Assembly (NCBI GenBank): GCA_964016885.1
Contig: CAXHJY010000359.1
Location: forward strand, 1-64,000
Source: Eledone cirrhosa
Taxonomy: Eukaryota
Reading direction: 5' to 3'
DNA length: 64,000 nt
In this document: positions 1,179-64,000 of the stretch, one piece after another
Numbering within the stretch: position 1 is the first letter of the stretch
Layout: each line of letters starts with the position of its first letter
Program-made: the position numbers and the translations under genes
Notes under the pieces: generated by a model
The model's database searches: none
Told to the model about the DNA's origin: nothing
Seen by the model: only the letters and a program-made list of their open reading frames with translations

Positions 1179-1239
1179 ATGAACTTTTTTTGTTTAATAT
1201 AAGGAACTGTTTCATTGTTTTATTCATTATTTTTTTAAT

Positions 1240-1370
1240 ATTTTATATATTATATATATATATATTATATATATATATTATATATATATTATATATAGAT
1301 ATTATATATATATATATATTATATATATATTATATATTATATATATATTATATATATATATTATATATAT

Positions 1371-1404
<34 letters not shown>

Positions 1405-1429
1405 ATATATATTATATATATATTATATA

Positions 1430-1480
<51 letters not shown>

Positions 1481-1546
1481 ATATATATATATTATATATT
1501 ATATATATATATATTATATATATTTATATATATTATATATATATAT

Positions 1547-1579
<33 letters not shown>

Positions 1580-2420
1580 ATATATTATATATATATATTA
1601 TATTATATTATATATATATTATATATATATATATTATATATTATATATTATATATATTATATATATATATATTATATATATTATATATATTATATATATA
1701 TATATAATTATATTATATATATATATATATTATATATATTATATATATTATATATATATAATATATTTATATATATATATATATTATATATATATATTAT
1801 ATATATTATATATATATTATATATATATATATTATATATATATATATTATATATATATATATATTATATATATATTATATATTATATATATATATATATT
1901 ATATATATATATATATTATATATATATATATTATATATATATATATATTATATATATATATATATTATATATATATATATTATATATATATATATATTAT
2001 ATATATATATATTATATATATATATATATTATATATATATATATATTATATATATATATATATATAATATATATATATATATTATATATATATATATATA
2101 ATATATATATATATATTATATATATATATATATAATATATATATATATATTATATATATATTATATATAGATATATTATATATATATATATATAATATAT
2201 ATATATTATATATATATATATTATATATATATATTATATATATATATATTATATATATATATATTATATATAGATATATTATATTATATATATTATATAT
2301 ATATATATTATATATATATATATTATATATAGATATATTATATTATATATAGATATATTATATTATATATATATATATTTATATATATATATATTTATAT
2401 ATATAATATTTATATATATT

Positions 2421-2456
<36 letters not shown>

Positions 2457-2728
2457 ATATATATATAATATATATATATAATATATATATATTATATATA
2501 TATATTATATATATATATATATTATATATATATATTATATATATATATTATATATATATATTATATATATATATTATATATATTATATATATATATTATA
2601 TATATATTATATATATATATATTATATATATATATATATTATATATATATATTATATATATATTATATATATATATATTATATATATTATATATTATATA
2701 TATTATATATATTATATATTATATATAT

Positions 2729-2762
<34 letters not shown>

Positions 2763-3330
2763 ATATTATATATATATATATATATATTATATATTATATA
2801 TTATATATATTATATATATTATATATATTATATATATATATATATTATATATATATATATTATATATATATATATTATATATTATATATATTATATATAT
2901 ATATATATTATATATATATATATTATATATATATATATTATATATTATATATATTATATATATTATATATATATATATATTATATATATTATATATATAT
3001 ATATATTATATATATATATATTATATATATATATATTATATATATATATATTATATATTATATATATTATATATATATATTATATATATATATATTATAT
3101 ATATATATATTATATATATATATATATTATATATATTATATATATATTATATATATTATATATATTATATATATATATATATTATATATATTATATATAT
3201 TATATATATTATATATATTATATTATATATATTATATATATATATATTATATATATATATTATATATATATATATTATATATATATATATTATATATATA
3301 TATATTATATATATTATATATATATATATT

Positions 3331-3364
<34 letters not shown>

Positions 3365-3406
3365 ATATTATATATATATATATTATATATATATATATTA
3401 TATATA

Positions 3407-3465
<59 letters not shown>

Positions 3466-6400
3466 ATTATATAGTATATATATTATATATATATATTATA
3501 TATATATATATTATATATTATATATATTATATATTATATATATATATATTATATATATATATATTATATATATATATATATATTATATATATATATATTA
3601 TATATTATATATATTATATATATATATTATATATATATATTATATATATATATATTATATATATATATTATATATATATATTATATATATATATTATATA
3701 TATATATTATATATATATATATTATATATATATATATTATATATATATTATATATATATATATTATATATATATATATTATATATATATATATTATATAT
3801 ATATATATTATATATATATATATTATATATATATATATTATATATATATATATTATATATATATATATTATATTAATATATATATATATTATATTATTAT
3901 ATATATATATTATATATATATATTATATTATTATATATTATATATATATATTATATTATATATTATATATATATATTATATTATTATATATTATATATAT
4001 ATATTATATTATTATATATTATATATATATATTATATTATTATATATTATATATATATATTATATTATTATATATTATATATATATATTATATTATTATA
4101 TATTATATATATATATTATATATATATATAATATATAATAATATATTATATTATTATATATTATATATATATATTATATATATATATTATATTATTATAT
4201 ATTATATTATTATATATTATATATATATATTATATATATATATATTATATATATATATTATATTATTATATATTATATATATATTATTATATATATATAT
4301 ATTATATATATATTATATTATTATATATTATATATATATATTATATTATATATTATATATATATATTATATTATATATTATATATATATATTATATTATT
4401 ATATATTATATATATATATTATATTATTATATATTATATATATATATTATATTATTATATATTATATATATATATTATATTATTATGTTATATATATATA
4501 TTATATTATATATTATATATATATTATATTATTATATATTATATATATATTATATTATTATATATTATATATATATATTATATTATTATATATTATATAT
4601 ATATATTATATTATTATATATTATATATATATATTATATTATTATATATTATATATATATATTATATATATTATATATATATATTATATTATATATTATA
4701 TATATATATTATATTATTATATATTATATATATATATTATATATATTATATATATATATTATATTATATATTATATATATATATTATATTATTATATATT
4801 ATATATATATATTATATTATATATTATATATATATATTATATTATATATTATATATATATATTATATTATTATATATTATATATATATATTATATTATAT
4901 ATTATATATATATATTATATTATTATATATTATATATATATATTATATTATTATATATTATATATATATATTATATTATTATATATTATATATATATATT
5001 ATATTATTATATATTATATATATATATTATATTATTATATATTATATATATATTATATTATATATTATATATATTTATTATATTATTATATATTATATAT
5101 ATTTATTATATTATTATATATTATATATATATATTATATTATTATATATTATATATATATATTATATTATTATATATTATATATATATATTATATTATTA
5201 TATATTATATATATATATTATATTATTATATATTATATATATATATTATATTATTATATATTATATATATATATTATATTATTATATATTATATATATAT
5301 TATATTATATATATATATTATATTATTATATATTATATATATATATTATATTATTATATATTATATATATATATTATATATATATATTATATTATTATAT
5401 ATTATATATATATATTATATTATATATTATATATATATATTATATTATATTATATATATATATTATATATATATATTATATTATATATATTATATATATA
5501 TATTATATTATTATATATTATATTATTATATATTATATATATATATTATATTATTATATATTATATATATATATTATATTATATATTTATATATATATTA
5601 TATTATATATTATATATATATATTATATTATTATATATTATATATATATATTATATTATTATATATTATATATATTATATTATTATATATTATATATATT
5701 TATTATATTATTATATATATATATATTATATTATTATATATTATATATATATTATATTATTATATATTATATATATTATATTATTATATATTATATATAT
5801 TATATTATTATATATTATATATATTATATTATTATATTATTATATATATATTATATATATATATTATATTATATATATATATATATATTATATTATTATA
5901 TATTATATTATTATATATTATATATATATATTATATTATATATTATATATATATATTATATTATATATTATATATATATATTATATTATTATATATTATA
6001 TATTATATTATTATATATTATATATATATATTATATTATTATATATTATATATATATATTATATTATTATATATTATATATATATATTATATTATATATA
6101 TATATTATATTATATATTATATATATATTATATTATTATATATATATATATTATATATTATATATATTATATATATATATATTATATATATATTATATAT
6201 ATTATATATATTTATATATATTATATATATATATATATATATTATATATATTTATATATATTTATATATATTTATATATATTTATATATATATTATATAT
6301 ATTTATATATATATTATATATATTTATATATATATTATATATATTATTTATATATATTATTTATATATATTATTTATATATATTATTTATATATATTATT

Positions 6401-9400
6401 TATATATATTATTTATATATTATTTATTATATATTATTTATATATATTATTTATATATATTATTTATATATATTATTTATATATATTATTTATATATATA
6501 TTATTTATATATATTTATATATATATTTATATATATATTATTTATATATATTTATATATATTATTTATATATATATTATTTATATATATTATTTATATAT
6601 ATTATTTATATATATATTATTTATATATATTATTTATATATATTATTTATATATATATTATTTATATATATTATTTATATATATATTATTTATATATATT
6701 ATTTTTATATATATTTGTATATATATTATTTTTATATATATTTATATATATATTTTTTATATATATTATTTATATATATATTATTTTTATATATATTATT
6801 TATATATATATTATTTATATATATTATTTATATATATTATTTATATATATATTATTTATATATATATTATTTATATATATATTATTTATATATATATTAT
6901 TTATATATATATTATTTATATATATATTATTTATATATATATTATTTATATATATATTATTTATATATATATTATTTATATTATTATTTATATATATTAT
7001 TTATATATATATTATTTATATATATATTATTTATATATATATTATTTATATATATATTATTTATATATATTTATATATATATATTTATATATATATTATT
7101 TATATATATTTATATATATTATTTTATATATATTATTATATATATATTATTTATATATATTATTTATATATATATTTATATATATTTATATATATTATTT
7201 ATATATATTATTTATATATATTATTTATATATATTATTTATATATATTATTTATATATATTATTTATATATATTATTTATATATATTATTTATATATATT
7301 ATTTTATATATATTATTTATATATATTATTTATATATATTTATATATATATTTATATATATATTTTTTATATATATTATTTATATATATATTATTTTTAT
7401 ATATATTATTTATATATATATTATTTATATATATATTTATATATATATTATTTATATATATTATTTATATATATATTATTTATATATATATTATTTATAT
7501 ATATTATTTATATATATATTATTTATATATATATTATTTATATATATATTATTTATATATATATTATTTATATATATATTATTTATATATATATTATTTA
7601 TATATATATTATTATATATATATTATTTATATATATATTATTTATATATATATTATTTATATATATATTATTTATATATATATTATTTATATATATATTA
7701 TTTATATATATATTATTTATATATATATTATTTATATATATATTATTTATATATATATTATTTATATATATATTATTTATATATATATTATTTATATATA
7801 TATTATTATATATATATTATTATATATATATTATTTATATATATATTATGTATATATATATTATGTATATATATATTATTTATATATATATTATGTTATA
7901 TATATATTATTTATATATATATTATGTATATATATATATTATGTATATATATATATTATGTTATATATATATTATGTATATATATATATTATGTATATAT
8001 ATATTATGTATATATATATATTATGTATATATATATATTATGTATATATATATATTATGTATATATATATATTATGTATATATATATATTATGTATATAT
8101 ATATATTATGTATATATATATTTATGTATATATATATATTATGTATATATATATATTATGTATATATATATTATGTATATTATATATTATGTATATATAT
8201 ATATTATGTATATATATATATTATGTATATATATATATTATGTATATATATATATTATGTATATATATATATTATGTATATATATATATTATTATATATA
8301 TTATATTATGTATATATATATATTATGTATATATATATATTATGTATATATATATATTATGTATATATATATATTATGTATATATATATATTATGTATAT
8401 ATATATATTATGTATATATATATTATGTATATATATATTATGTATATATATATATTATGTATATATATATATTATGTTATATATATATTATGTATTATAT
8501 ATATTATGTATATATATATATTATGTATATATATATATTATGTATATATATATATTATGTATATATATATATTATGTATATATATATATTGTGTATATAT
8601 ATATATTATGTATATATATATATTGTTTATATATATATTGTGTATATATATATATTGTATATATATATATTGTGTATATATATATATTGTGTATATATAT
8701 ATATTGTGTATATATATATATTGTGTATATATATATATTGTGTATATATATATATTGTGTATATATATATATTGTGTATATATATATATTGTGTATATAT
8801 ATATATTGTGTATATATATATATTGTGTATATATATATATTGTGTATATATATATATTGTGTATATATATACACAATATATATATACACAATATATATAT
8901 TACACAATATATATATATTGTGTATATATATATTGTGTATATATATATATTGTGTATATATATATATTGTGTATATATATATATTGTGTATATATATATA
9001 TTGTGTATATATATATATTGTGTATATATATATATTATGTATATATATATATTATGTATATATATATATTATGTATATATATATATTATGTATATATATA
9101 TATTATGTATATATATATATTATGTATATATATATATTATGTATATATATATATTATGTATATATATATATTATGTATATATATATATTATGTATATATA
9201 TATATTATGTATATATATATATTATGTATATATATATATTATGTATATATATATATTATGTATATATATATATTATGTATATATATATATTATGTATATA
9301 TATATATTATGTATATATATATATTATGTATATATATATATTATGTATATATATATATTATGTATATATATATATTATGTATATTATATATTATGTATAT

Positions 9401-12145
9401 ATATATATTATGTATATATATATATTATGTATATATATATATTATGTATATATATATATTATGTATATATATATATTATGTATATATATATATATGTATA
9501 TATATATATTATGTATATTATATATTATGTATATATATATTATGTATATATATATATATTATGTATATATATATATATTATGTATATATATATATTATGT
9601 ATATATATATATTATGTATATATATATATTATGTATATATATATATTATGTATATATATATATTATGTATATATATATATTATGTATATATATATATTAT
9701 GTATATATATATATTATGTATATATATATTATGTATATATATATTATGTATATATATATTATGTATATATATATATGTATATATATATATGTATATATAT
9801 ATGTATATATATATGTATATATATAGTTAATATATGTATATATATATGTATATATATATGTATATATATATGTATATAAATATGTATATAAATATGTATA
9901 TAAATATGTATATAAATATGTATATAAATATGTATATAAATATGTATATAAATATGTATATAAATATGTATATAAATATGTATATAATATGTATATTAAT
10001 ATGTATTAATATGTATATAATATGTATATAATATGTATATAATTATGTATATAATATGTATATAATATGTTATATAATATGTATATAATATGTATATAAT
10101 ATGTATATAATATTATATATTATATTATTATATATTATATTATTATATATTATATTATTATATATTATATATATATTATATATATATTATTATATATATA
10201 TATTATATTATATTATATATATATTATATTATATATATATTATATTATATATATTATATTATATATTATATTTATATTATATATATTATATTATATATAT
10301 ATTATATTATATATATTATATTATATATATATATATTATATTATATTATATATATATTATATTATATATATTATATATATTATTTATATTATATTATATA
10401 TATATTATATTATAATATATATTATATTATATATATATATATATTATAATTTTATATATTTATTTTATATATATATTATTATATTATATATTATTATATA
10501 TATATTATTATATTATATATTATTATATTATATATTATTATATTATATATTATTATATATTATATTATTATATATTATATTATTATATATTATATTATTA
10601 TATATTATATTATTATATATTATATTATTATATATTATATTATTATATATTATATTATTATATTATTATATATTATATTATTATATATTATATTATTATA
10701 TATTATATTATTATATATTATATTATTATATATTATATTATTATATATTATATTATTATATATATATATTATATATTATATTATTATATATTATATTATT
10801 ATATTATATATATATTATTATATATATATTATATTATATATATATTATATTATTATATATTATATATATATTATATTATTATATATTATATATATATTAT
10901 ATTATTATATATTATATATATATTATATTATTATATATTATATATATATTATATTATTATATATTATATATATATTATATTATTATATATTATATATATA
11001 TTATATTATTATATATTATATATATATTATATTATTATATATTATATATATATTATATTATTATATATTATATATATATTATAATATTATATATTATATA
11101 TATATATTATATTATATATTATATATATGATTATATTATATATTATATATATGTATTATATTATATATTATATATATGTATTATATTATATATTATATAT
11201 ATGTATTATATTATATATTATATATATGTATTATATTATATATTATATATATATATTATATATTATATATATATATTATATTATTATTATATTATTATAT
11301 ATTATATATATATATTATTATATATTATTATATATTATTATATATATATTATTATATATTATTATATATTATTATATTATTATATATTATATATATATAT
11401 TATTATATATTATTATATTATTATATATTATATATATATATTATTATATATTATTATATTATTATATATTATATATATATATTATTATATATTATTATAT
11501 TATTATATATTATATATATATATTATTATATATTATTATATTATTATATATTATATATATATATTATTATATATTATTATATTATTATATATTATATATA
11601 TATATTATTATATATTATTATATTATTATATTATATATATATATATTATTATATATTATTATATTATTATATATTATATATATATATTATTATATATTAT
11701 TATATTATTATATATTATATATATATTATTATATATTATTATATTATTATATTATATATATATATTATTATATATTATTATATTATTATATATTATATAT
11801 ATATATTATTATATATTATTATATTATTATATATTATATATATATATTATTATATATTATTATATTATTATATATTATATATATATATTATTATATATTA
11901 TTATATTATTATATATTATATATATATATTATTATATATTATTATATTATTATATATTATATATATATATTATTATATATTATTATATTATTATATATTA
12001 TATATATATATTATTATATATTATTATATTATTATATATTATATATATATATTATTATATATTATTATATTATTATATATTATATATATATATTATTATA
12101 TATTATTATATTATTATATATTATATATATATTATATTATTATAG
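1240..12145. repeat. Giant (TA)n-derived compound microsatellite array of about 11 kb with successive sub-domains
   Basis: Almost pure A/T. Units shift from (TA)nT to TATTATTTATA (about 6.2-7.8 kb), TATTATG(TA)n (about 7.85-9.8 kb), TATTGTG(TA)n (about 8.6-9.0 kb), TATATAAATATG (about 9.87-9.98 kb) and TATTATTATA (10-12.1 kb). Confidence 0.98.
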
Positions 12146-13004
12146 AGATTATATATATCGGGTTGCTGACCAATAACTTCTCAATGTAAAGGCGCTAACA
12201 TTTTCGAACAGAGGCAACTCACAAGATATTATTGATACAATTTAGATATTTTGTACTAAAAATAAAATATGATCAATTAGAGCAATGAAACGTTACTTGT
12301 GTGTGTATGTATGCACACGCACGCACGTGTGTGTCCCATTGTCATGGCTAAATTGACTGGTAGTAATTCGTTACTTTGACCTGCACCAATATATTTCATA
12401 GCTGTATGAGTTTTCTAGTATTTTTGCAAGCTTAATTCTATTCGGGTTAAAAATATCAATCTACCGAGGTTAGTTAAAAATTCAACAGAACCTCCTAGCT
12501 CCTTTACGGCTTCCCTTGCTTCACATTTATCTTATGCTTAGTTTGCCAATTTCATTAAAAAAAAAATGTATTATATTCACTTCTGTTTTGTTTTTCTCGA
12601 CTGTAAGAAGTCTTAGATACTCCTCTAGCTAGCTCTATAAGGACGTTTGAATGGATTAAATACTAGAAATTTAAAGATCTTCTTCGGCTAATTTCAAAGT
12701 GTGTACAATCCCTCAACCAACTCTTTATGATAAATGCATGCTCTCTTCTCACCAAATTTTAAATTATCTAGAAATCATTTTTCTATTTGTAGCAATCCAA
12801 GGAAATGGTTAATTTGACTGAAATCCCGCAGCACAAGTTGGCCAGATAAAAAAGAAGAAAAAAAATGGAAGCTCATGAAACGTGGAATCATAATTTTCGA
12901 AATAGAATGGAATATAGAATTGACTTGAAACACTGCTTCAAAGGGCGTCTGGACTGGAGATATGGCACATTAATTTTACCTGTATCTAGGCTAACTGCTC
13001 TGGG

Positions 13005-15915: not shown

Positions 15916-16327
15916 TAAGATCTTTTTATTCCGGTTTTCTGAACTGAGTTAAAAGCTAATTGAAGTCAACTTCCTTTGTAGTCGATACATACCAGTTTAT
16001 GGGCGACGGATTGGCGAATATGTTAGTGGGACAGGCTGCTCTGTGGTATCTAAATGGATTTGTTCACTGATTTGCGAGCGGCATATAGTATTGGTAATAG
16101 AAAGACCAGTGGAAACATTGTTTAATTGGTCCGATCTAACGATCAGCTCTTTTCATTCTTTATATTTAAACTCTGAAAGTCTTGTTTCATAATTTACCTT
16201 TGTCTTTAACGATCTTTACTTTAGTGTAATATCTTGATTGTTTTCTTTAATCCGACAGAATGAATAATTTTATAAATGTTGCATTAAATATAACTGGTTT
16301 CGATTGGTATAACAATCTTATCAAATA

Positions 16328-17239
16328 TACGAGGTGTCAAAAGTTCCAGGACTGATGTCACAAAAGATTTATTTCAAACCTAAACTTCACACTAAGAGGT
16401 TTTTCCTTCAAAGTAATCCCCCTGGATCTGGAGTCTAATGCACTTTTCCATCCTTTTCTGCCACGTTTGCATGCACTCCTGGAAGGATTCTTCCGGGATC
16501 CTCCGCAGTTCCGTCGTCACGGCCTTTTTGATGTCGTCTGCATCTTCAAAACGGGTCCCCTCCGGGTCGTACTCGAAGATCCATGACTCATCACCGGTGA
16601 TGACTGTCCCTAGCAAGTCTGGTTCGGTTTCAAGACGCTCGAGGATGTCCTGGCACACTTGCATGCGTCGACCCTTCTGGTCATCGTTCAGCAGTTCTGG
16701 CACCATCTTCGCGCAGACTTTTCGCATGTCCAAATCTTCAGTGAGAATCTTCCAGACGCTGTCTCGATTCATGCCCAGCTCATTTACCATCAGTCGAACA
16801 GTCAGCCGACGATCGCTACGCACCATCTGCCTGACGCGCTCAACGTTGACCTCAGTGCTGGTTGTTGAGGACCTTCCGCTCCAGGGGTCATCTTCCACGT
16901 CCTCGCGTCCTTCTTTAAACCTCTTGTACCACTCAAAAACACGTGAGCGTGACATCGTCTCATCTCCAGACACTTGCTGCAGCGGAGTTTTCCCCAACCG
17001 TACCAGAAACTTCAAGTTTGTTCGTTGCTCTGTGCTCATTGCTTGACGACCTGAAACAGATGTATATAAAATTATGAAGAAAAAAGTTTGATCGCTGCAG
17101 AGAGCTAAGATAAGTTACATGTTACATACTCCAGGGGGGGGGGGGGGTACTTTGAAGGAGAAAACTCTTAGTGTGAAGTTTGGGTTTGAAATAAATCTTT
17201 TGTGACATCAGTCCTGGAACTTTTCTGACACACCTCGTA
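16328..17239 (-). mobile_element. Mariner (Tc1/mariner) DNA transposon, internally deleted, with about 90-bp terminal inverted repeats and TA flanks
   Basis: Ends TATACGAGGTG... and ...CACCTCGTATA. The inverted repeat continues through GATGTCACAAAAGATTTATTTCAAACC..ACTAAGAG.. to about 16422 and 17145. Contains a transposase ORF. Confidence 0.95.
16392..17039 (-). CDS. Truncated mariner transposase (215 aa): HTH DNA-binding region kept, catalytic core deleted
   Basis: MSTEQRTNLKFLVRLGKT..VFEWYKRFKEGREDVEDD..DRRLTVR..KVCAKMVPELL..ITGDESWIFEYDPE joined in frame to GTRFEDADDIKKAV..WQKRMEKCI..GDYFEG. The HDNA and YSPDLAP.D motifs are missing. Confidence 0.85.
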   Translation of the reverse strand: MSTEQRTNLKFLVRLGKTPLQQVSGDETMSRSRVFEWYKRFKEGREDVEDDPWSGRSSTTSTEVNVERVRQMVRSDRRLTVRLMVNELGMNRDSVWKILTEDLDMRKVCAKMVPELLNDDQKGRRMQVCQDILERLETEPDLLGTVITGDESWIFEYDPEGTRFEDADDIKKAVTTELRRIPEESFQECMQTWQKRMEKCIRLQIQGDYFEGKTS

Positions 17240-17539
17240 TATTAAATATTAAAATGCTTTTTCATGTATTTTGTGAGTAGTTAGAATATATGAATTTTTA
17301 GTCAAAATGTATGTTCCTTATGGTGTGGAGGTGGGGTTCAACAGGTCGAGCATTCAATATACCATGTTTCTTTTACATATCTCGAATCTTTAGTTTACGT
17401 TCAATTTATTATAACAGGAACATTTAACAAAATGAGTAACTACATGAATGACTATAAAATTAGAAAAACACTAAATATTTAAAAATGGAAAAGGAAGGTG
17501 CAAGGGCTTTAGGACCACATAAGAATGGGGGTGAGGGTG

Positions 17540-44372: not shown

Positions 44373-46194
44373 ATTATTTAGATGTGGTATGTTTATATTT
44401 AGCATATTAGCATTGTTGATAGTGGAAACGGGAACCGTTATTGTAGTGTCACTCCAACCTATCAGTTCGTTCTACACGAATACATCTCTAGTAATAGACA
44501 GGTAGACGTAGCATGGTTGAATGGTTAAGAAATTTGTTTGACTATCATGAGGTCTCACTGTGTAGCATCTAGGGCAAGTGTCATTTATCAAAGCCTCTGC
44601 CTGACTCGGGCCTTTTGAGTGAAATTGGGTAGTCGGGAATTTTTTATAGTACCATCATATGGACTCTACCTGTTATTTAAAAGGAAGTTATCAATTTGAA
44701 TCTCTCTGCGAACTAAAATAACAATGACTGTGAAAAGCTCAACCATTTGTACGTTAATTTCACGTACTTGCTGTTCCGCTGACAGAATAACTGGAACAAT
44801 CACCGTTAAAATTGACGGAGATCCATTCCATTCCAGCAATAGTTAGCTGAACAATACACATTTGATCGACATATTTTATGTTGATTAAAATATTTCTTCT
44901 AGCTACGTCTAATTCATATTTGCTGTAAGGTATTTATAATTTAAAATATATGTATCCACCTCATTTAACAATATATATGTTTAACTGACTCTAGCATGTC
45001 TCCCTCGCTATCCTCCTCCCGGCACCACGAAGCTATGTCTACCTGAGGTTCTGCACTTCAGAAACAGATCATACAGACGGAAGTGACAACCTTTTGGTTG
45101 GTTGATTCATCTCATTACTACACACGCATACGTAAATATAATATTACGCAGTTAAGATTTTTTTTTTTTTTTTTTTTTTTTTGGCGTTAAATATTGGGCA
45201 GTGTTTTTTTTTTTTTAAAAGGCACTTCAGCGTGGAGGCTCTGTGTAAGGTGTAGTTTGTTGCGCAACTTGGTGTCTACCTCAAGCAGGTAGATTAATAC
45301 TGACAGCCTCATTGTAACCTCCTTTCAGAAACGTTATCATAAAAATATATTTAGCAAGAAGCCTTTATTTGTGAAATTTTCGAGACTTCCGTCATTTAGA
45401 AGTTTGCTTTTTAATCAAATGTGTAAAAAGAGATAAAATAAAAGTAAAAAATCAAAGAATGTTGTAAAATTTTTCACTTTTCTCTCGTGTTTTGATAAAA
45501 AAAATGTTAGTAGTTGAAGCATTTCCTTTTTAAAAAGCCAATCAGATTGCAGAAAAAAGGTCTTTCATGTTTTACCGAGTAAATTTGATAAAATTTATTT
45601 ATAAATATGCCATTTTCAAAACATTAACCGTTAGGCAGAAGAAAAGTTCCTCATACTTGATATTCTTTAAAATGAAATCTGTTATTTATTCTCCTTTCAA
45701 ATCTAAGTGATGACACGTCTTTTTAGATAAAATTCTTTTGACTAAAGCAGACGAACGTGCTTAGAAAGTCGTCTGGCATATTTGATTCAAGTGTTTTTTT
45801 TTTTCTTTGTATTTTCCCCCAGTTGAATAGCATTTAAAAATCACTTCCACCCCTAATGCATTTATATCGGTGAAATAGATTTAAAAATCTTGTTGGTAAG
45901 GCGAACCTTCGATATTGTAACCTGGCTTCGATTCTCGTTCAAACCATCTCATTTCACTCATATAAATGATGAAACCTATTACAAAATTTTGTTTGAGAAT
46001 CATTTGAATAAAATTTTCACTTGTGATTCTATGGATCCTATCTACAGTAAAAGAAAAGCGTGGAAAGATTGTGGAACTGAAACAACTCAAAATAAAACTT
46101 TGTCATCATTTGCCCTTCGTATTTTTCTATCGTTTTGAAAATTATCGGTCTTCTATTACATATTTCACAATGCTTCGTATTTACACTTTATTCT

Positions 46195-50144: not shown

Positions 50145-50185
<41 letters not shown>

Positions 50186-50221
50186 CATACATTTGTGTGT
50201 GTGTGCACAAAATCATACATT

Positions 50222-50265
<44 letters not shown>

Positions 50266-50537
50266 AAATCATACATTTGTGTATATATATATATATATAT
50301 AATATATATATATACACAAAATCATACATTTGTGTATATATATATAATATATATATATACACAATCATACATTTGTATATATATATATAATATATATATA
50401 TATACACAAAATCATACATTTGTATATATATAATATATATATACACAAAATCATACATTTGTATATATATAATATATATATATACACAAAATCATACATT
50501 TGTATATATAATATATATATACACAAAATCATACATT

Positions 50538-50585
<48 letters not shown>

Positions 50586-50727
50586 AAATCATACATTTGT
50601 GTGTGTGTATATATATATATATATACAAAATCATACATTTGTATATATATATATATATATATATATATACAAAATCATACATTTGTGTGTGTGTGTATAT
50701 ATATATATATATACAAAATCATACATT

Positions 50728-50767
<40 letters not shown>

Positions 50768-50781
50768 AAATCATACATTTG

Positions 50782-50819
<38 letters not shown>

Positions 50820-50863
50820 CATACATTTGTATATATATATATATATATAAAATCATACATTTG

Positions 50864-50901
<38 letters not shown>

Positions 50902-50915
50902 AAATCATACATTTG

Positions 50916-50953
<38 letters not shown>

Positions 50954-50967
50954 AAATCATACATTTG

Positions 50968-51005
<38 letters not shown>

Positions 51006-51021
51006 TAAAATCATACATTTG

Positions 51022-51059
<38 letters not shown>

Positions 51060-51073
51060 AAATCATACATTTG

Positions 51074-51111
<38 letters not shown>

Positions 51112-51125
51112 TAAAATCATACATT

Positions 51126-51167
<42 letters not shown>

Positions 51168-51177
51168 CATACATTTG

Positions 51178-51213
<36 letters not shown>

Positions 51214-51227
51214 AAATCATACATTTG

Positions 51228-51261
<34 letters not shown>

Positions 51262-51274
51262 AAATCATACATTT

Positions 51275-51319
<45 letters not shown>

Positions 51320-51378
51320 AAATCATACATTTGTATGTATATATATTATATATATATATATAAAAAATCATACATTTG

Positions 51379-51416
<38 letters not shown>

Positions 51417-51424
51417 CATACATT

Positions 51425-51466
<42 letters not shown>

Positions 51467-51474
51467 CATACATT

Positions 51475-51514
<40 letters not shown>

Positions 51515-51546
51515 CATACATATATATATATATAAAATCATACATT

Positions 51547-51580
<34 letters not shown>

Positions 51581-51594
51581 AAATCATACATTTG

Positions 51595-51632
<38 letters not shown>

Positions 51633-51670
51633 CATACATTTGTGTATATATATATACAAAATCATACATT

Positions 51671-51714
<44 letters not shown>

Positions 51715-51728
51715 CAAAATCATACATT

Positions 51729-51760
<32 letters not shown>

Positions 51761-51880
51761 CAAAATCATACATTTGTGTATATATATATATATATTTAAT
51801 ATATATATACAAAATCATACATTTGTGTGTATATATATATATATTTAATATATATACAAAATCATACATTTGTATGTATG

Positions 51881-51918
<38 letters not shown>

Positions 51919-51920
51919 AA
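50145..51920. repeat. Compound minisatellite: constant AAAATCATACATTTG core plus variable (TG)n(TA)n spacer
   Basis: Roughly 35-40 copies of the 15-mer (counted by eye), period about 30-60 bp. Confidence 0.95.
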
Positions 51921-52534
51921 TGTATGTGTGTGAACATATATTTATGTATATATGGATAATATATAATACATATATCTTTCTATGTACGTATACATATCTA
52001 TATATAAATGTAAGTATATTTATGTGTTATAGAGATAGATATTCTTATATCGATAGATATGTGTTTATATACTTACTGCCATATATTTATATATGCAGTT
52101 AATTCTTTATACACACATATATATATATATACTTACAGCCATATATATTTGCAGATATGCATATATATATACATATATGCGCACGCATGTACATACATAT
52201 TCACACGTACATGTAGACACAGATACATACATACATATACATACAGATGTGTATATGTATGCTTGCATCCATAATCTATGTATATAGATGTGTGTATATC
52301 ATAGACATAAACACTTGCAACCATATGTAAACATTATCTGAATTTAATTTCTCTAACCGTCCCTCTCCTGTTTATATTTTAAGTTTGAGCTTCAAAGTCT
52401 TTATGAATATTTTTCGATATTTAGTGTTAATCTATATATTTAAAAAAATATCTTTTCATATACATGTGTGTGTGTGCATGCATGTATAAACGATAATAGT
52501 GTCCGTTGTTGTCAGTCCGATGATAGGGCGTATG

Positions 52535-53670
52535 TCTTCGACAGGATGAGAATGTCAGATATGATCGACCCCATAAATGAAAGAACCAGAACTGAATACA
52601 TCAGAGTAAAGAAAATATGGTCACAAGAAAGAACTATCGGCGTATAACAAATACATTGCCCACAATACTTATGCTGTGCCAATCCTAACGCCAACATTTG
52701 GTCTGCTGAACGGGTCATTGCAAGAACTGAGATGGATGTAAGAACTCGCAAGCTTCTCACTGTTACTGGAAACTTTAACATCAATGGCGATGTTGATAGG
52801 CTATACTTCTCATGCAAGGAAGGTGGCCGGGGTCTAACATCCATATTAACATCATACGAGACCCGGACCGTAACATTGAAGCAACATCTTCAACAGAAGA
52901 AAAAGGTCAGCAACCATTAAAGCACAACTGGCCCGATATTGTACAGGCCAGTTGTGCTTTAATTTGGTTGCAGTTTTTATTTTCAGATTCCACCAATATT
53001 CCTTAGTGTCATCTATCTCAACATATTCCTCCTCGTTTGTTTTTAATTGGGTTTTCCTAAGTGCGTTCCAGATGGTTCTCGCTATCACATCGAGTCTCAT
53101 AGGAATGAGACGACATTCTTTCGCAATTGGTAACAATATAACGATTGGTAACGATCTTTATTTTACATGGCCATCAGTCGACAATAAATGTAGGCTATCC
53201 TCTTTTGGGTAGCAGATATTTGGTAGGGATTTCTTATTCCTGTATTGCATAGATATCCTTGAAGGTGGGATATCATAAACTGGTCAGAACTCTCTGCCAG
53301 GCTTTTTGAATGATTTATGGTATGTTTTTCGTCTCAGATACCCATGCACAACTTTCTCTGTAAATTGTTCCATTTTAGTGTTTGGGATCACACAATGAAA
53401 ACGTGATCTTTTGTAGAGATCAGCTGCCCATTTGATGTCAATATTGCAAGAAAAAGTACAAGAGATCTGCGGACCATTAATGAAGAGTTTGCAGATCTAG
53501 TATCTAAGGTGCACCTTCAGCTTCATACCCATCATTATTGGAGATACAGGTTATATACAAACCCATTTGGACCAACGTATAACTGAACTAGGATTTGTGG
53601 ATAAAGAGCGCAGTTCCCTAATTCATAGACTACAAATGACTGCGATAGCTGGCACCTTCAAAATTTGTCA
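52535..53670 (+). mobile_element. R4/Dong-like RLE non-LTR retrotransposon 3' fragment with an internal inversion
   Basis: Plus strand: MDVRTRKLLT..DVDRLYFSCKEGGRGL, KHNWPDIV, then VEISCPFDVNI..LQMTAIAGTFKI. The segment 52946-53380 reads on minus: HGY..RLDVIARTIWNAL..EYWWNLKIKTATKLKHNWP. Confidence 0.8.
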
Positions 53671-53861
53671 TCCCTTGAATGGCGAATGTTTTGCAATTTC
53701 TTTTCTTTTACAACCTTGCCACCAGGAAGATGGCTCGTCAAAAGTGTGTGTGTGTGTGTGTGTGTGTGTCGATTCTAATCAATTTTTATGCTCTTTAAAC
53801 TCAGACGAAATTTTGTCAAACATTAATAGGAAAAGTCGTGTGTGTATATGATGTACTTGTT

Positions 53862-53892
<31 letters not shown>

Positions 53893-54367
53893 TAACCCTC
53901 TAAAAAGGGAAATCATATCAAATCCCAGACTACCATTTGCCTCCATTATGGCCCAACCAAGCGCTCTTGCCATAACACCTTTTAAACTGCTTATCCTCAA
54001 GAACTATGCCTGTAGATAATATTCTTTCTTTCCCATTACCTTATGTTCCACATCACCCCCCCTTTTTTTTTCTTTTTTTCTTTCTACTTCAAAAACCTTG
54101 TTTGTAAATGATATATTTTTACTTTCCCATTTCCTTAACATGTTCAACATCACATTATTTTCTCTCCAGCATTTTATACCAATACAAATTCCCCCCTTTG
54201 ATAATGCATAAAATGCTAAGACAATTATTAAATAAATAAATAAATAAACTAATACCTTAACACTTCACAAAGTAAAAATATTTTGTTTTAAACATTTTCT
54301 AACCCAGAAAAAAAAGGATTAAGGGGGAGGAAAAAAAAATGTTCTTCCTAATAATCGTCTTTTTCTC

Positions 54368-54412
<45 letters not shown>

Positions 54413-54926
54413 TATATATATATATATTATACTTGGGGAGGGTCATATTTGTGCAATAATATTGCCAGAATTAATAACGGAACACACTCACTGTTTGGTT
54501 GGTTTTCGCTTCTGTGTCTTTTTATATCGGTTAATTGTAATAATATTGCCAGAATTATATATAAAGGAAAAGAAATCGTAAATGCAACTGGAGTCTTTAA
54601 GAATATTTGTTTCCTTTACCAGTTTCACAGTTCTTATGCTTTTCAAAAGTACAATTGAGATGGAGGGTTTGTGGTTAAAAACCACACTCTCTTTTTTCTT
54701 TTCTTTTCTTTTTTCTTTTCTTTTCTATTTGCTTTTTCTATTTGCTTTTTCTATTTTCTTTTTCTCTAAATATAGAGATAAGGTAGATATAATTTCTTGT
54801 AAACAAGAGACAGATGAGAACATTCAATACTATTTCCTCATAGTTCATTTATCCAAACAAAGGTAGTTAACAATATTTAACAATTATATATGTAAATCAT
54901 TACATTCTATGTAGATTGTTCAGTAG

Positions 54927-55079
54927 ATAACCAGATACCGAGATTTGACCGGCCGGTTGCCGTCGAGATACCCGGTTCCGGTGTCCTCGAAATCTGCTAC
55001 GGACTGGCGTTTTCTTACCACAAATCATGAGGGCCTCCCGCTTCAAGAAGGAACCTTGCGAGCTGGAATGACTTGTGCA
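54927..55079 (+). CDS. Candidate internal coding exon of an unidentified host gene (51 codons, phase 0-0)
   Basis: Non-repetitive GC-rich island in AT-rich DNA, bounded by ttgttcagtAG and GTatgt. Open frame ITRYRDLTGRLPSRYPVPVSSKSATDWRFLTTNHEGLPLQEGTLRAGMTCA; the other + frames contain stops. Protein not recognised. Confidence 0.45.
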
Positions 55080-55103
55080 GTATGTTTGTGTGTCTCTATA
55101 TGC

Positions 55104-55145
<42 letters not shown>

Positions 55146-55239
55146 GTGAGTGTGTATATATACATGCATGTATGCATATATATTTGTAGTAAGGTTGCTT
55201 GGATGCGTCCATGGGCGGTATGCCTGATTATTTGTTTTA

Positions 55240-55281
<42 letters not shown>

Positions 55282-55285
<4 letters not shown>

Positions 55286-55360
55286 AATATAGAAGAGATT
55301 CTACAGGACTAGAACTGTTTCATTCGTGAGAAATCATCAGTAATCTCTTCTATATTAAAA
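55282..55360 (-). ncRNA. Type I hammerhead ribozyme candidate (copy 1 of tandem pair)
   Basis: Minus strand: ttttaatatagaagagatta-CTGATGA-tttctcacgaat-GAAA-cag-ttctagtc-ctg-TA^-gaatctcttctatattaaaa. 19-bp stem I with an A:G mismatch next to the core; GTA cleavage triplet (cut 55302/55301). Confidence 0.75.
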
Positions 55361-55539
55361 CTTTTATACTCTATGTATTGAGTATTGGAATAACATACTA
55401 TATATATATATATTATATATATATAATATATATATATATATAGTAAGTTATTTATTATATATATATAGTAAGTTGAATCGGAGGTAACCACAGTAAGTAA
55501 GGTACTCAATACATAGAGTATAAGTTTTAAATATAGATG

Positions 55540-55590
55540 AGATTCTACAGGACTAGAACTATTTCATTCTTGAGAAATCATCAGGAATCT
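55540..55590 (-). ncRNA. Type I hammerhead ribozyme candidate (copy 2 of tandem pair)
   Basis: Minus strand: agattc-CTGATGA-tttctcaagaat-GAAA-tag-ttctagtc-ctg-TA^-gaatct. Perfect 6-bp stem I; cut 55546/55545. Confidence 0.8.
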
Positions 55591-55739
55591 GACTGTCCAA
55601 ATAAATGTGGTGGTATTTATATCTTTTCTTTCAATCAATGACCTTCACTCATCCCACTCCACACCCTCTCCTACCACCAGAAAAGATATACCACCAGATA
55701 TAATACCAGCATCTATATTAAAACTTATATATAGGAGAG

Positions 55740-55986
55740 AGAGTGACAATAAGTCAGATTTGCAGCTTTTTATGAAACTTTATTGCATCTTACAATTGTT
55801 TTGATATCGATTAGCTTGGGTTTGATCAGGCGACCGGATCCCGTCTCTTAATCTACACTTCTTCGTGTAGATTAAGAGTCGGGATCCGACCACCTGATCA
55901 ACCCAAGCTGATCGATATCAAAACAATTGTAATATACAATAAAGTTTCATAAAAAGCTGCAAATTTAACTTCTCATTGTAACTCTA
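55740..55986. repeat. Long imperfect palindrome (arms about 120 bp, spacer TTCTTC at 55859-55864)
   Basis: ..TTTGCAGCTTTTTATGAAACTTTATTG..CTCTTAATCTACAC | GTGTAGATTAAGAG..CAATAAAGTTTCATAAAAAGCTGCAAA. Confidence 0.95.
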
Positions 55987-56052
55987 TATATTGACTCTGC
56001 AAACTACAGCCGCCTTAAATTTGGAGCACAATTCTACGAGAGACGGACCCCG

Positions 56053-56091
<39 letters not shown>

Positions 56092-56236
56092 TTTATATAT
56101 ATATATATAAAATGTATGTATGTATGTATGTATGTAATATATATATGTATTTGCATGCATATTTGATATGCAATTGGAGTTGTAGACGCATGGAAAAGAT
56201 GGCAGAGAAAGCGTAGACTCTATTTTATTCTAGTGA

Positions 56237-56385
56237 TCTATATATATAAAACTGAAGTTGTCTGTGTCCTCATTTTTGCAAAGTCTATATAAATCCACAT
56301 TTCTACTCCGATTGACTTCAAACTTCCATTTATATATTCCTTGTGGTCTAAAGATATTAACTGCCGCATTTATTTTTTTCAATTT
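56237..56385 (+). mobile_element. Possible non-autonomous Helitron 5' end
   Basis: A|TCTATATATATAAAACTGAAGTTGTCTGTG..CCGATTGACTTCAAACTT, the TC-start pattern typical of invertebrate non-autonomous Helitrons. No 3' hairpin/CTRR found downstream. Confidence 0.4.
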
Positions 56386-56634
56386 CTGTTGTTAAAGGGT
56401 GTTAGGCGCCGGTTATCCATCTCCGTCGCGCTCTTATATCTGTCTGAATGCCTGACTGTCTGCATAACGTCATTGCTGACATTATCTTCGCTACATTCGC
56501 GCCACGCACGCGCACATATATATATATATATATACATATATACTTATATATACATATACACACATATATACAAACACATATACACATATATAGATACAGT
56601 CTTTCTCTGTATATATATATGTGTGTGTGTGTAT

Positions 56635-57127
56635 GTACGTCCTTATCAGATAAAATAAGATGATGCATGACATACCCTGACATAGTCGATGGTTAAGATC
56701 CAGTCCTGGTAGTAAGATGACACCAGTCCTGGTAGTGAGTAAGATATGACAACTCAATATTTATATACCTTAAGATTGATACATGAAAAAACCTACATAT
56801 AATACAGAGGGTGCGTGTAAGAAAGCTTAAAAATACATAACAGTAATTTACATAACTGTTAAAGATTCAAATAATTATTGAAGAAAAAGGAAAGTCTTTT
56901 TTCTTTCCTTTTTCTTCAATAATTATTTGAATCTTTAACAGTTATGTAAATTACTGTTATGTATTTTTAAGCTTTCTTACACGCACCCTCTGTATTATAT
57001 GTAGGTTTTTTCATGTATCAATCTTAAGGTATATAAATATTGAGTTGTCATATCTTACTCACTACCAGGACTGGATCTTAACCATCGACTGTCGTGCATC
57101 ATCTTATTTTATCTGATGAGGACGTAC
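56635..57127. repeat. Long near-perfect palindrome (arms 56635-56894 and 56903-57127, 8-nt spacer)
   Basis: The inner 170 bp or so are reverse-complement identical by eye. The left arm carries small extra internal duplications (CCAGTCCTGGTAGT twice, TGACATA twice). Confidence 0.97.
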
Positions 57128-57171
57128 TGTTGATGTTAGCTCAGTACCTCTGAAATATGTATAATAAAATA
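57105..57171 (+). ncRNA. Type I hammerhead ribozyme candidate with minimal stem III (Penelope-type)
   Basis: tattttat-CTGATGA-ggacgtactg-ttgatgttagct-cagtacctct-GAAA-tatgta-TA^-ataaaata. 8-bp stem I, 10-bp stem II with one mismatch, near-palindromic stem III, ATA triplet (cut 57163/57164). Confidence 0.85.
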
Positions 57172-57458
57172 TACTTGATCACAATGAAGTACTATTTTGT
57201 TAATATTTTGAATGAATGTTAATAACTCCGGAAACCAAATCTGTTGAGTGCTGCCAATCTATTGTAAAACTAATTCTTTGATTTATTCATTAACCTTGTT
57301 TAACCTTTGTGTGTGTGAATAAGGGTTGACGGACCCAGCATATTTATCAATGCCAGTACCGGTTGTATCTCGGCGCACTCAATGGGCAATGTAAGATACA
57401 TTACCAGAGTATACAGTTATTTTCCTCAACACAACACACGTAAAACGGGTGCCTATAA

Positions 57459-57578
57459 GGTTCCCGGACTCGAGTTTCTGCAGCACTAATGCAGCAGTAA
57501 GGTGCACTGCACCATCTGTCTGCATATATTATGCAACAATGCACAATCGGCTTATGCGGCTTCATCAGCGGTATCACC
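57459..57578 (-). ncRNA. Hammerhead-like core with an 83-nt multi-hairpin insert in domain II
   Basis: Minus strand: ccg-CTGATGA (57568-57562) ...83 nt... GAAAC-TCGA-GTC^-cgg (57478-57464). The insert holds four short inverted repeats. Stem I has only 3 contiguous G-C pairs. Confidence 0.5.
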
Positions 57579-57949
57579 TAATCAATAACCAATCGATCGA
57601 CAGAACCCAAACACCGGCCCATGCCGGTCATGAGTGCTTGTGATAACCGACACGGTAAAGCGATGAGCAACTGGCAACCGATAGGACTCTCTCTCTCTCT
57701 CTCTCAACTAGCCACTGATTTACACATTTTACGTGGGGACGGGAAGCTAAAAAGAATCAATCTTTTAGTTCCTGTCAGAAGCTCTCAGCCAACGTCTCAC
57801 ACACAAATTATCAAGGGGTGAAAAGATGGCTATTAGAAATAGCAGTTCACATTGATATAAAATAGAATGGTAGCATTCGGTTCATGTCTCCAAGCCCCAG
57901 GGCTAGAGGAAAGCGATGGTAACAATGGTGGTGCCAAGAACCTTTAACG

Positions 57950-64000
<6,051 letters not shown>

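Follow-up and report, generated by a model that had tools for sequence, protein, structure and literature searches.

Positions 55282..57578 of the 64-kb window (the whole stretch of DNA analysed) carry four true hammerhead ribozyme motifs and a broken fifth, far above chance. The cluster is likely a pile of independent, 5′-truncated insertions from at least three families of Penelope-like elements (PLEs), each of which would have brought in a minimal hammerhead with its terminal repeat; on this reading, a single zone rich in TA/TG would have received four or five insertions separately. The putative PLE membership of the ribozyme families A, B and C is deduced from their structure because no Penelope open reading frame was seen; six-frame reading by eye gave no reverse transcriptase (RT) or GIY-YIG frame in the units.

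The window was scanned with a type I descriptor, consisting in this order of CUGANGA, helix II, GAAA, helix III, UH and helix I, and the stems were checked. Among 31 CUGANGA boxes, four pass, all of them within 55282..57578, and all four contain CUGANGA, GAAA and NUH in type I order together with helices I–III. More than one core occurred in none of 2000 dinucleotide shuffles of the 2.3 kb (mean 0.007), while block shuffles (n = 100) of the 43.9 kb of non-array DNA gave a mean of 0.28 cores and a maximum of 2. The four cores, A1, A2, B and C, agree with a preceding sequence-only reading, which had proposed four hammerheads of three sequence types on both strands and none intact elsewhere in the window; no further canonical core is present in the 64 kb. 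Since A1 and A2 share 88% identity over 82 nt and constitute one family, at most three independent ribozyme families are present; their occurrence inside 2.3 kb has p = 0.008 under uniform placement across 43.5 kb. Core C no longer passes when the stem I minimum is raised to 4 bp. A broken half-hammerhead of family B, on the minus strand at about 56635-56663 and with G8 changed to A, had been overlooked before. A relaxed U3-A8 core variant gave three weak matches, at 45585 (plus), 54646 (minus) and 16324 (minus), a count that 4 of 100 shuffles reach. No Rfam family matched the 64 kb at its gathering score, and none of the 69 matches at E ≤ 10 in 54000-58200 came from a hammerhead model. The Rfam hammerhead models miss minimal variants.

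Table 1. Coordinates of the hammerhead units and surrounding features in the window
Feature	Position	Strand	Remarks
Candidate exon of the earlier reading	54927..55079	plus	AG/GT boundaries, 51 open codons
(TA)n tract	55238..55281		at the outer end of A1
Unit A1	55282..55398	minus	hammerhead plus inverted copy of the downstream flank; CUGAUGA at 55340, GUA, predicted cut after 55302
Interrupted (TA)n tract	55399..55467		from A1 to A2
Unit A2	55468..55731	minus	upstream region, hammerhead, downstream flank, inverted pieces; core at 55584, GUA, predicted cut after 55546
Palindrome 1	55740..56056		arms 55740-55858 and 55865-55985; TA at both ends
(TA)n/(TATG)n tract	56057..56150		
(TA)n/(TG)n tract	56517..56634		left end of unit B
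Left arm of unit B	56635..56894	minus	inverted copy ending within the hammerhead, 5′ half only
Right arm of unit B	56903..57308	plus	repeat element end
Hammerhead B	57105..57171	plus	CUGAUGA at 57113, AUA; 8-bp stem I, self-complementary AUAUGUAU; predicted cut after 57163, as stated in the earlier reading
(TG)n remnant, (TG)5	57309..57317		junction of the B and C 3′ ends, tail to tail
Unit C	57318..57685	minus	repeat element end; outer boundary approximate, near a (CT)n tract
Hammerhead C	57458..57579	minus	core at 57568; branched helix II, palindromic ACUCGAGU, GUC; predicted cut after 57467
Giant TA/TG array	57949..64000		flanks the cluster

All four motifs have a self-complementary stem III/loop 3, with modelled self-duplexes of -12.8, -9.0, -2.2 and -10.7 kcal/mol, the weak value of -2.2 belonging to B, compared to hairpins of -1.4 kcal/mol or none. 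This feature is the dimer signature of PLE ribozymes and therefore counts for a PLE origin. An extra base follows A9 on the 5′ side, the next pair being G-C in B and C and U-A in A; one further base intervenes before GAAA in B and C, and the G10.1-C11.1 pair expected immediately before G12 in metazoan PLE minimal hammerheads is not seen in this form, which speaks against PLE membership. The type I core, the self-complementary stem III/loop 3 and the unpaired base after A9 resemble the minimal hammerheads of PLEs in the accessible text of Cervera and De la Pena (2014, PMC4209133), as do the predominance of single motifs from truncated copies, the opposite-strand pairs and the presence of several families per genome. 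The dual PLE motifs described there lie 100-700 bp apart on opposite strands. A location of hammerheads within pLTRs is a further described feature of PLEs. Unlike those ribozymes, all three families here carry an unpaired or wobble base also before G12, helix II measures 3 bp in family A and 83 nt, with branching, in family C, compared to 6-8 bp in the part of that account available, and stem III/loop 3 of family A is 16 nt long. Judging by neighbouring repeats, the DNA may be cephalopod-like, and Penelope families are reported to be abundant in cephalopods in the accessible part of PMC13282606.

Two fold-back repeats claimed by the sequence-only reading were recovered, at 55740-55985 (palindrome 1) and 56635-57127 (palindrome 2). 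Rfam miRNA models matched the palindromes far below gathering, which reflects long hairpins. Palindrome 2 consists of two family B copies arranged head-to-head. Its inner arms of 172 nt are 100% complementary around an 8-nt spacer, while two substitutions and indels of 23 and 12 nt distinguish the outer arms. The left arm, which carries the G8 change, stops inside helix II. An assembly or library fold-back artefact, with the cluster itself partly due to chance, would account for the perfect inner arms, and the 3-bp stem I of C in the present copy could be taken in the same sense. Such an artefact is nevertheless extremely improbable: the outer arms are not identical, other copies, represented by 358 reads and 21 contigs, also contain the 12 nt kept in the left arm, the arms of palindrome 1 are about 10% apart, the C architecture is better paired in related copies, and the chance expectation for cores in 2.3 kb is tiny. 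Over 56723-57074, both B arms have in common letters unlike those of related copies, with the inner 172 nt identical, and arm-to-arm conversion is possible.

The B and C units recur outside the window. Four of eleven sequencing runs, none of the eleven listed as RNA, were compared with 56899-57945 at 80% likeness, and these 1047 nt matched 3404 contigs in run X1, 12 in X4, 8 in X6 and 3888 RAD reads in X9, where depth on the interval does not equal copy number. B and C are dispersed, many-copy repeats in three organisms. A deep contig of organism C is identical to B over 57090-57170 save three letters (57094, 57134 and 57136, among the best 40 of 164 letter changes), which fall outside the core and the stems. 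Stem II of B consists of G.U/G-C/A-U, a C.C mismatch and 6 bp. In metagenome contigs, the B motif was found in no case.

The ends of these copies bear on the earlier proposal that (TA)n tracts serve as a landing pad for Penelope-type ribozyme elements. Among the best 24 of 385 loose ends, other B copies run into (TA)n behind 57308 (8 contigs in X1, one in X4 and 155 reads in X9), behind 57291 (28 X1 contigs, whereas 215 X9 reads at this position do not) and, with one contig each, behind 57208 and 57180; within the same selection, other C copies are preceded by (TA)n before 57318 in 29 X1 contigs, with an agreement of 0.59. The abutment of other copies on (TA)n at 57308/57318 and a geometry that fits published PLE insertions uphold the proposal. 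The accompanying claim that the units are separated by (TA)n holds for the tracts around A1 and A2 but fails between B and C, where (TG)5 is found. The cores lie 59, 117, 494 and 431 nt from the nearest (TA)5+ tract, compared to a window median of 3.9 kb; these distances add little, since local TA density is so high that 81% of positions in the TA-rich zone at 52.3-57.9 kb are no more than 500 nt from such a tract. Landing in microsatellites is a described PLE behaviour and not the mark of a special island. The giant TA-rich array said to follow directly downstream is a TA/TG array that continues to the window end. Large TA-based arrays occupy three intervals (1238-12158, 50147-52006 and 57949-64000), with a strong strand skew in the outer two and a recurring AAAATCATACATTTG spacer in the middle one.

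The arrangement of the units resembles insertions of endonuclease-bearing (EN+) PLEs as described in the accessible portions of Craig et al. (2021, PMC8557442) and Arkhipova et al. (2013, PMC3846280), with truncation, an inverted neighbouring copy and palindromes, and it shares with the elements of PMC8557442 a one-sided extension and a microsatellite bias without visible target-site duplication. In those texts, adjacent inverted truncated copies occur together with one-sided tails of 30-40 bp and a microsatellite bias (PMC8557442), and head-to-head PLE palindromes are ascribed to self-priming (PMC3846280); PLEs are also reported to insert into or beside existing copies (PMC6765202, accessible part). 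Adjacent inverted partial copies in head-to-head arrangement are present here, arm asymmetry is seen in every unit (about 25-50 nt in A, 70 nt in palindrome 1 and 180 nt in B), and no target-site duplication is discernible at the units. The lack of an ORF in the present units and the B extension of about 180 nt, against 30-40, differ from the EN+ elements as presented in the available text of PMC8557442.

Family A shows both a seemingly intact unit and a rearranged one. A2 apparently retains the native layout, with an upstream region, a 6-bp stem I, the core and the downstream flank; its stem II comprises a U.U and 3 bp, the full length of helix II in this family, and its stem III/loop 3 of 16 nt is near-palindromic. 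Short inverted pieces occupy its far end (55672-55731). In A1, the downstream flank recurs in inverted form (55342-55384) in place of the upstream side, and this copy begins exactly at the stem I strand, so that stem I reaches 18 bp. The A1 arms are identical over 18 nt and have in common a letter absent from both A2 copies, and position 1.1-2.1 is A.G in A1 compared to a C-G pair in A2. From this we infer that the inverted end of A1 arose by fold-back or template switching at stem I. Simple fold-back does not suffice, because the arms are unequal, with 43 nt on the right and about 19 nt on the left; it would have to be complemented by subsequent loss or by a second template. Palindrome 1, the next unit, has arms that are about 86-93% alike (86% counting gaps), separated by a 6-7-nt spacer, and its right arm bears about 70 nt of extra sequence. 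The candidate explanation of palindrome 1 as a degenerate hammerhead was discarded, as the descriptor scan finds no core in it; it may conceivably be of MITE origin.

These features are consistent with the following course. A GIY-YIG endonuclease would nick a TA/TG microsatellite, and reverse transcription would copy only the element end. Fold-back or template switching would then add an inverted partial copy, yielding the head-to-head arrangement of B and palindrome 1, with the switch point in A1 falling exactly at ribozyme stem I. As each insertion would leave TA on both sides, it would provide a new target. Tandem transcripts of the parent elements would be cut by ribozyme dimers that pair via their self-complementary stem III. 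For the present copies, little activity is predicted: they would mostly be carried along passively, with B locked by its inverted arm and A1 the least hindered. On the minus strand, adopting the active fold would cost 4.2 kcal/mol in A1, 10.3 in A2 (and equally in the A2/A1 dimer) and 10.4 in C relative to the free ensemble; these are model values that leave out tertiary contacts. A1 would be the likeliest motif to cut here, if any does. Decay is visible in the G8 to A change of the B half-copy, the lost 1.1-2.1 pair of A1 and the shortened stem I of C.

In family C, the core boxes are 83 nt apart, and a branched helix II lies between them. Its inner 64 nt are predicted to form two hairpins (z = -3.1; 1 of 200 shuffles is equally stable). 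Five contigs among the best 24 of 3440 pieces span this long helix II, which is thus family-wide; within that selection, one contig has a single changed letter and one gap over 57431-57598, and the others have 17-26. Stem I contains an internal loop and only 3 bp. An extra G behind 57569, found in most related C copies and absent here, would make it 4 bp: among the best 40 of 164 letter changes, it occurs in three X4 contigs at full depth, in one X6 contig and in 240 of 275 X9 reads, whereas in X1 only 672 of 10097 in depth carry it and 38 contigs break off at this point (among the best rows listed). In the same selection of letter changes, a C at 57482 closes a C.U mismatch in helix II in 13571 of 15650 in depth in X1 and in about half in X4. 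The stem II change at 57482 is probably common to a contig of organism B, so that it need not be private to the present copy. Related C copies are therefore better paired than this one, where "decayed here" is relative to sequencing runs that may come from related species. Uniform conservation of the C region is contradicted by single X1 contigs that skip 32 or 77 nt, and one RAD stack disrupts a pair at 57481.

A bolder reading combines two proposals, namely that family C represents an undescribed architecture with a type I core and a family-wide three-way-junction domain of about 65 nt in helix II, possibly a binding or regulatory module, and that stem I of A1 acted as the fold-back primer that makes Penelope inverted ends, a second, structural role of the hammerhead in retrotransposition. 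Taken together, we consider these proposals doubtful. In the literature covered (main texts of openly accessible papers), neither families A, B and C nor PLE hammerheads with a branched helix II are described; the shape of family C may already have been described among the PLE hammerhead variants by Lunse et al.

Scanning for the stem III pattern of C returned at least 117 stretches; among the matches listed, stems I and II of at least 3 bp are present in 16 of 116 loci, of which 14 constitute one unrelated repeat family. None of the listed loci matches units A, B or C or palindrome 1 by blastn, and 15 scanned ORFs of the 49 from these loci gave no Penelope RT or GIY-YIG domain. The unrelated repeat, about 1.5 kb long, contains a well-formed type I hammerhead with the stem III of C and was seen at loci L017, L018, L021, L025, L049, L052 and L058, with further copies at L064, L069, L079, L081, L089, L091 and L116. 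Locus L002 carries two hammerheads with the C-type stem III inside a 662-nt direct repeat.

The non-coding character of B and C and their unit lengths of about 400 and 370 nt, within the size range of retrozymes, bring in a second class of ribozyme-bearing elements. The motifs could be solo, non-autonomous retrozymes or ribozyme-bearing SINE-like elements, moved in trans through circular-RNA intermediates, and not the ends of autonomous elements. Non-coding units of 300-400 nt with a type I hammerhead are described for non-LTR retrozymes (Cervera and De la Pena 2020, PMC7229834; Li et al. 2026, bioRxiv 10.64898/2026.07.22.740005), the U.U at the helix II base of family A is the same as in the axolotl HHR_Amex2 (PMC7229834), and solo monomers are common, with retrozymes reported to derive from PLE pLTRs (bioRxiv 10.64898/2026.07.22.740005), in each case according to the accessible part of the source. 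The location of A1 and A2 on one strand, 244 nt apart, would also suit such elements, but the two do not constitute a repeated unit. Unlike non-LTR retrozymes, the cluster contains inverted arms and no unit-length head-to-tail repeats; among the seven joints listed for B and C, none goes back by one unit length, and a head-to-head arrangement of inverted arms is typical of PLEs. Retrozymes and PLE ends overlap in origin. Solo retrozymes come close to the preferred explanation as an alternative, yet we think it unlikely that they explain the cluster.

The sequence-only reading had further suggested that the plus-strand ribozyme cuts a host pre-mRNA at 57163. The candidate exon on which this depended gave no Pfam match, no homolog and no Atlas match. 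Three phmmer matches of this exon, with E as low as 1e-12, were discarded: the proteins consist of tandem repeats over which a short, SATDW-like chance match is summed. A 44-nt AG...GTAAG mini-exon on the minus strand (55019-55062) overlaps it and is as plausible, so that any host gene here is putative and could lie on either strand. In a plus-strand read-through RNA, the left arm is predicted to pair with 57099-57127, that is, with the stem I strand and the CUGAUGA of B, and the active B fold would lie 39.8 kcal/mol above the free ensemble with the left arm and 18.6 kcal/mol without it. The suggestion is thus not borne out by exon, strand or model.

More generally, a ribozyme island retained by the host to cut or regulate a pre-mRNA passing through it would fit the concentration of three families in 2.3 kb, the agreement of the B core with the family sequence, the modest cost of about 4 kcal/mol modelled for an A1 monomer, and a possible nested fold in which A2 and A1 form a double hammerhead. 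We give this interpretation very little credence: clustering follows from target preference, B would be sequestered by its inverted arm, changes that break pairs have accumulated in A1, C and the B half-copy, and, in vitro, monomers of metazoan PLE minimal hammerheads did not cleave and dimers cleaved at a low level (PMC4209133, accessible text). B and C are many-copy sequences, and no verified gene or strand accompanies them, other than would be found for a host-exapted intronic hammerhead. The amniote intronic hammerheads HH9 and HH10 are single-copy and conserved. The present motifs, by contrast, occur in many copies, show signs of decay and lack a verified host gene, and the likeness lies in the role that had been proposed.

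A stack of truncated Penelope-like ends, the preferred explanation, makes the locus, as it stands, ordinary transposon debris that adds three families of Penelope-type hammerheads and clearly exemplifies stacking guided by microsatellites. The kind of arrangement is already published, and families A, B and C are new members. Two modest points of interest are suggested, the 83-nt branched helix II of C and the inverted end of A1 at stem I, which points to fold-back priming. Greater weight would follow if selection keeps the branched helix II of family C and cleavage changes with it, or if elements that bear hammerheads have, across the genome, their inversion breakpoints at stem I. Either case would matter because the function of the hammerhead in endonuclease-bearing PLEs and the origin of inverted ends are named as open questions in the accessible text of PMC8557442.

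Several other elements surround the cluster. A decayed non-LTR retroelement fragment at 52500-53720, the middle of which is apparently inverted and which has no Pfam match, is presumably R4/Dong-like; the R4/Dong clade targets simple repeats. Between two TA tracts, a short element at 56236-56510 starts with TCTATATATATAAAA, and resembles a Helitron-type non-autonomous element. A mariner-like transposase remnant, recognised by HTH matches, occupies 16392-17243 and has inverted ends at 16324-16422 and 17141-17243.
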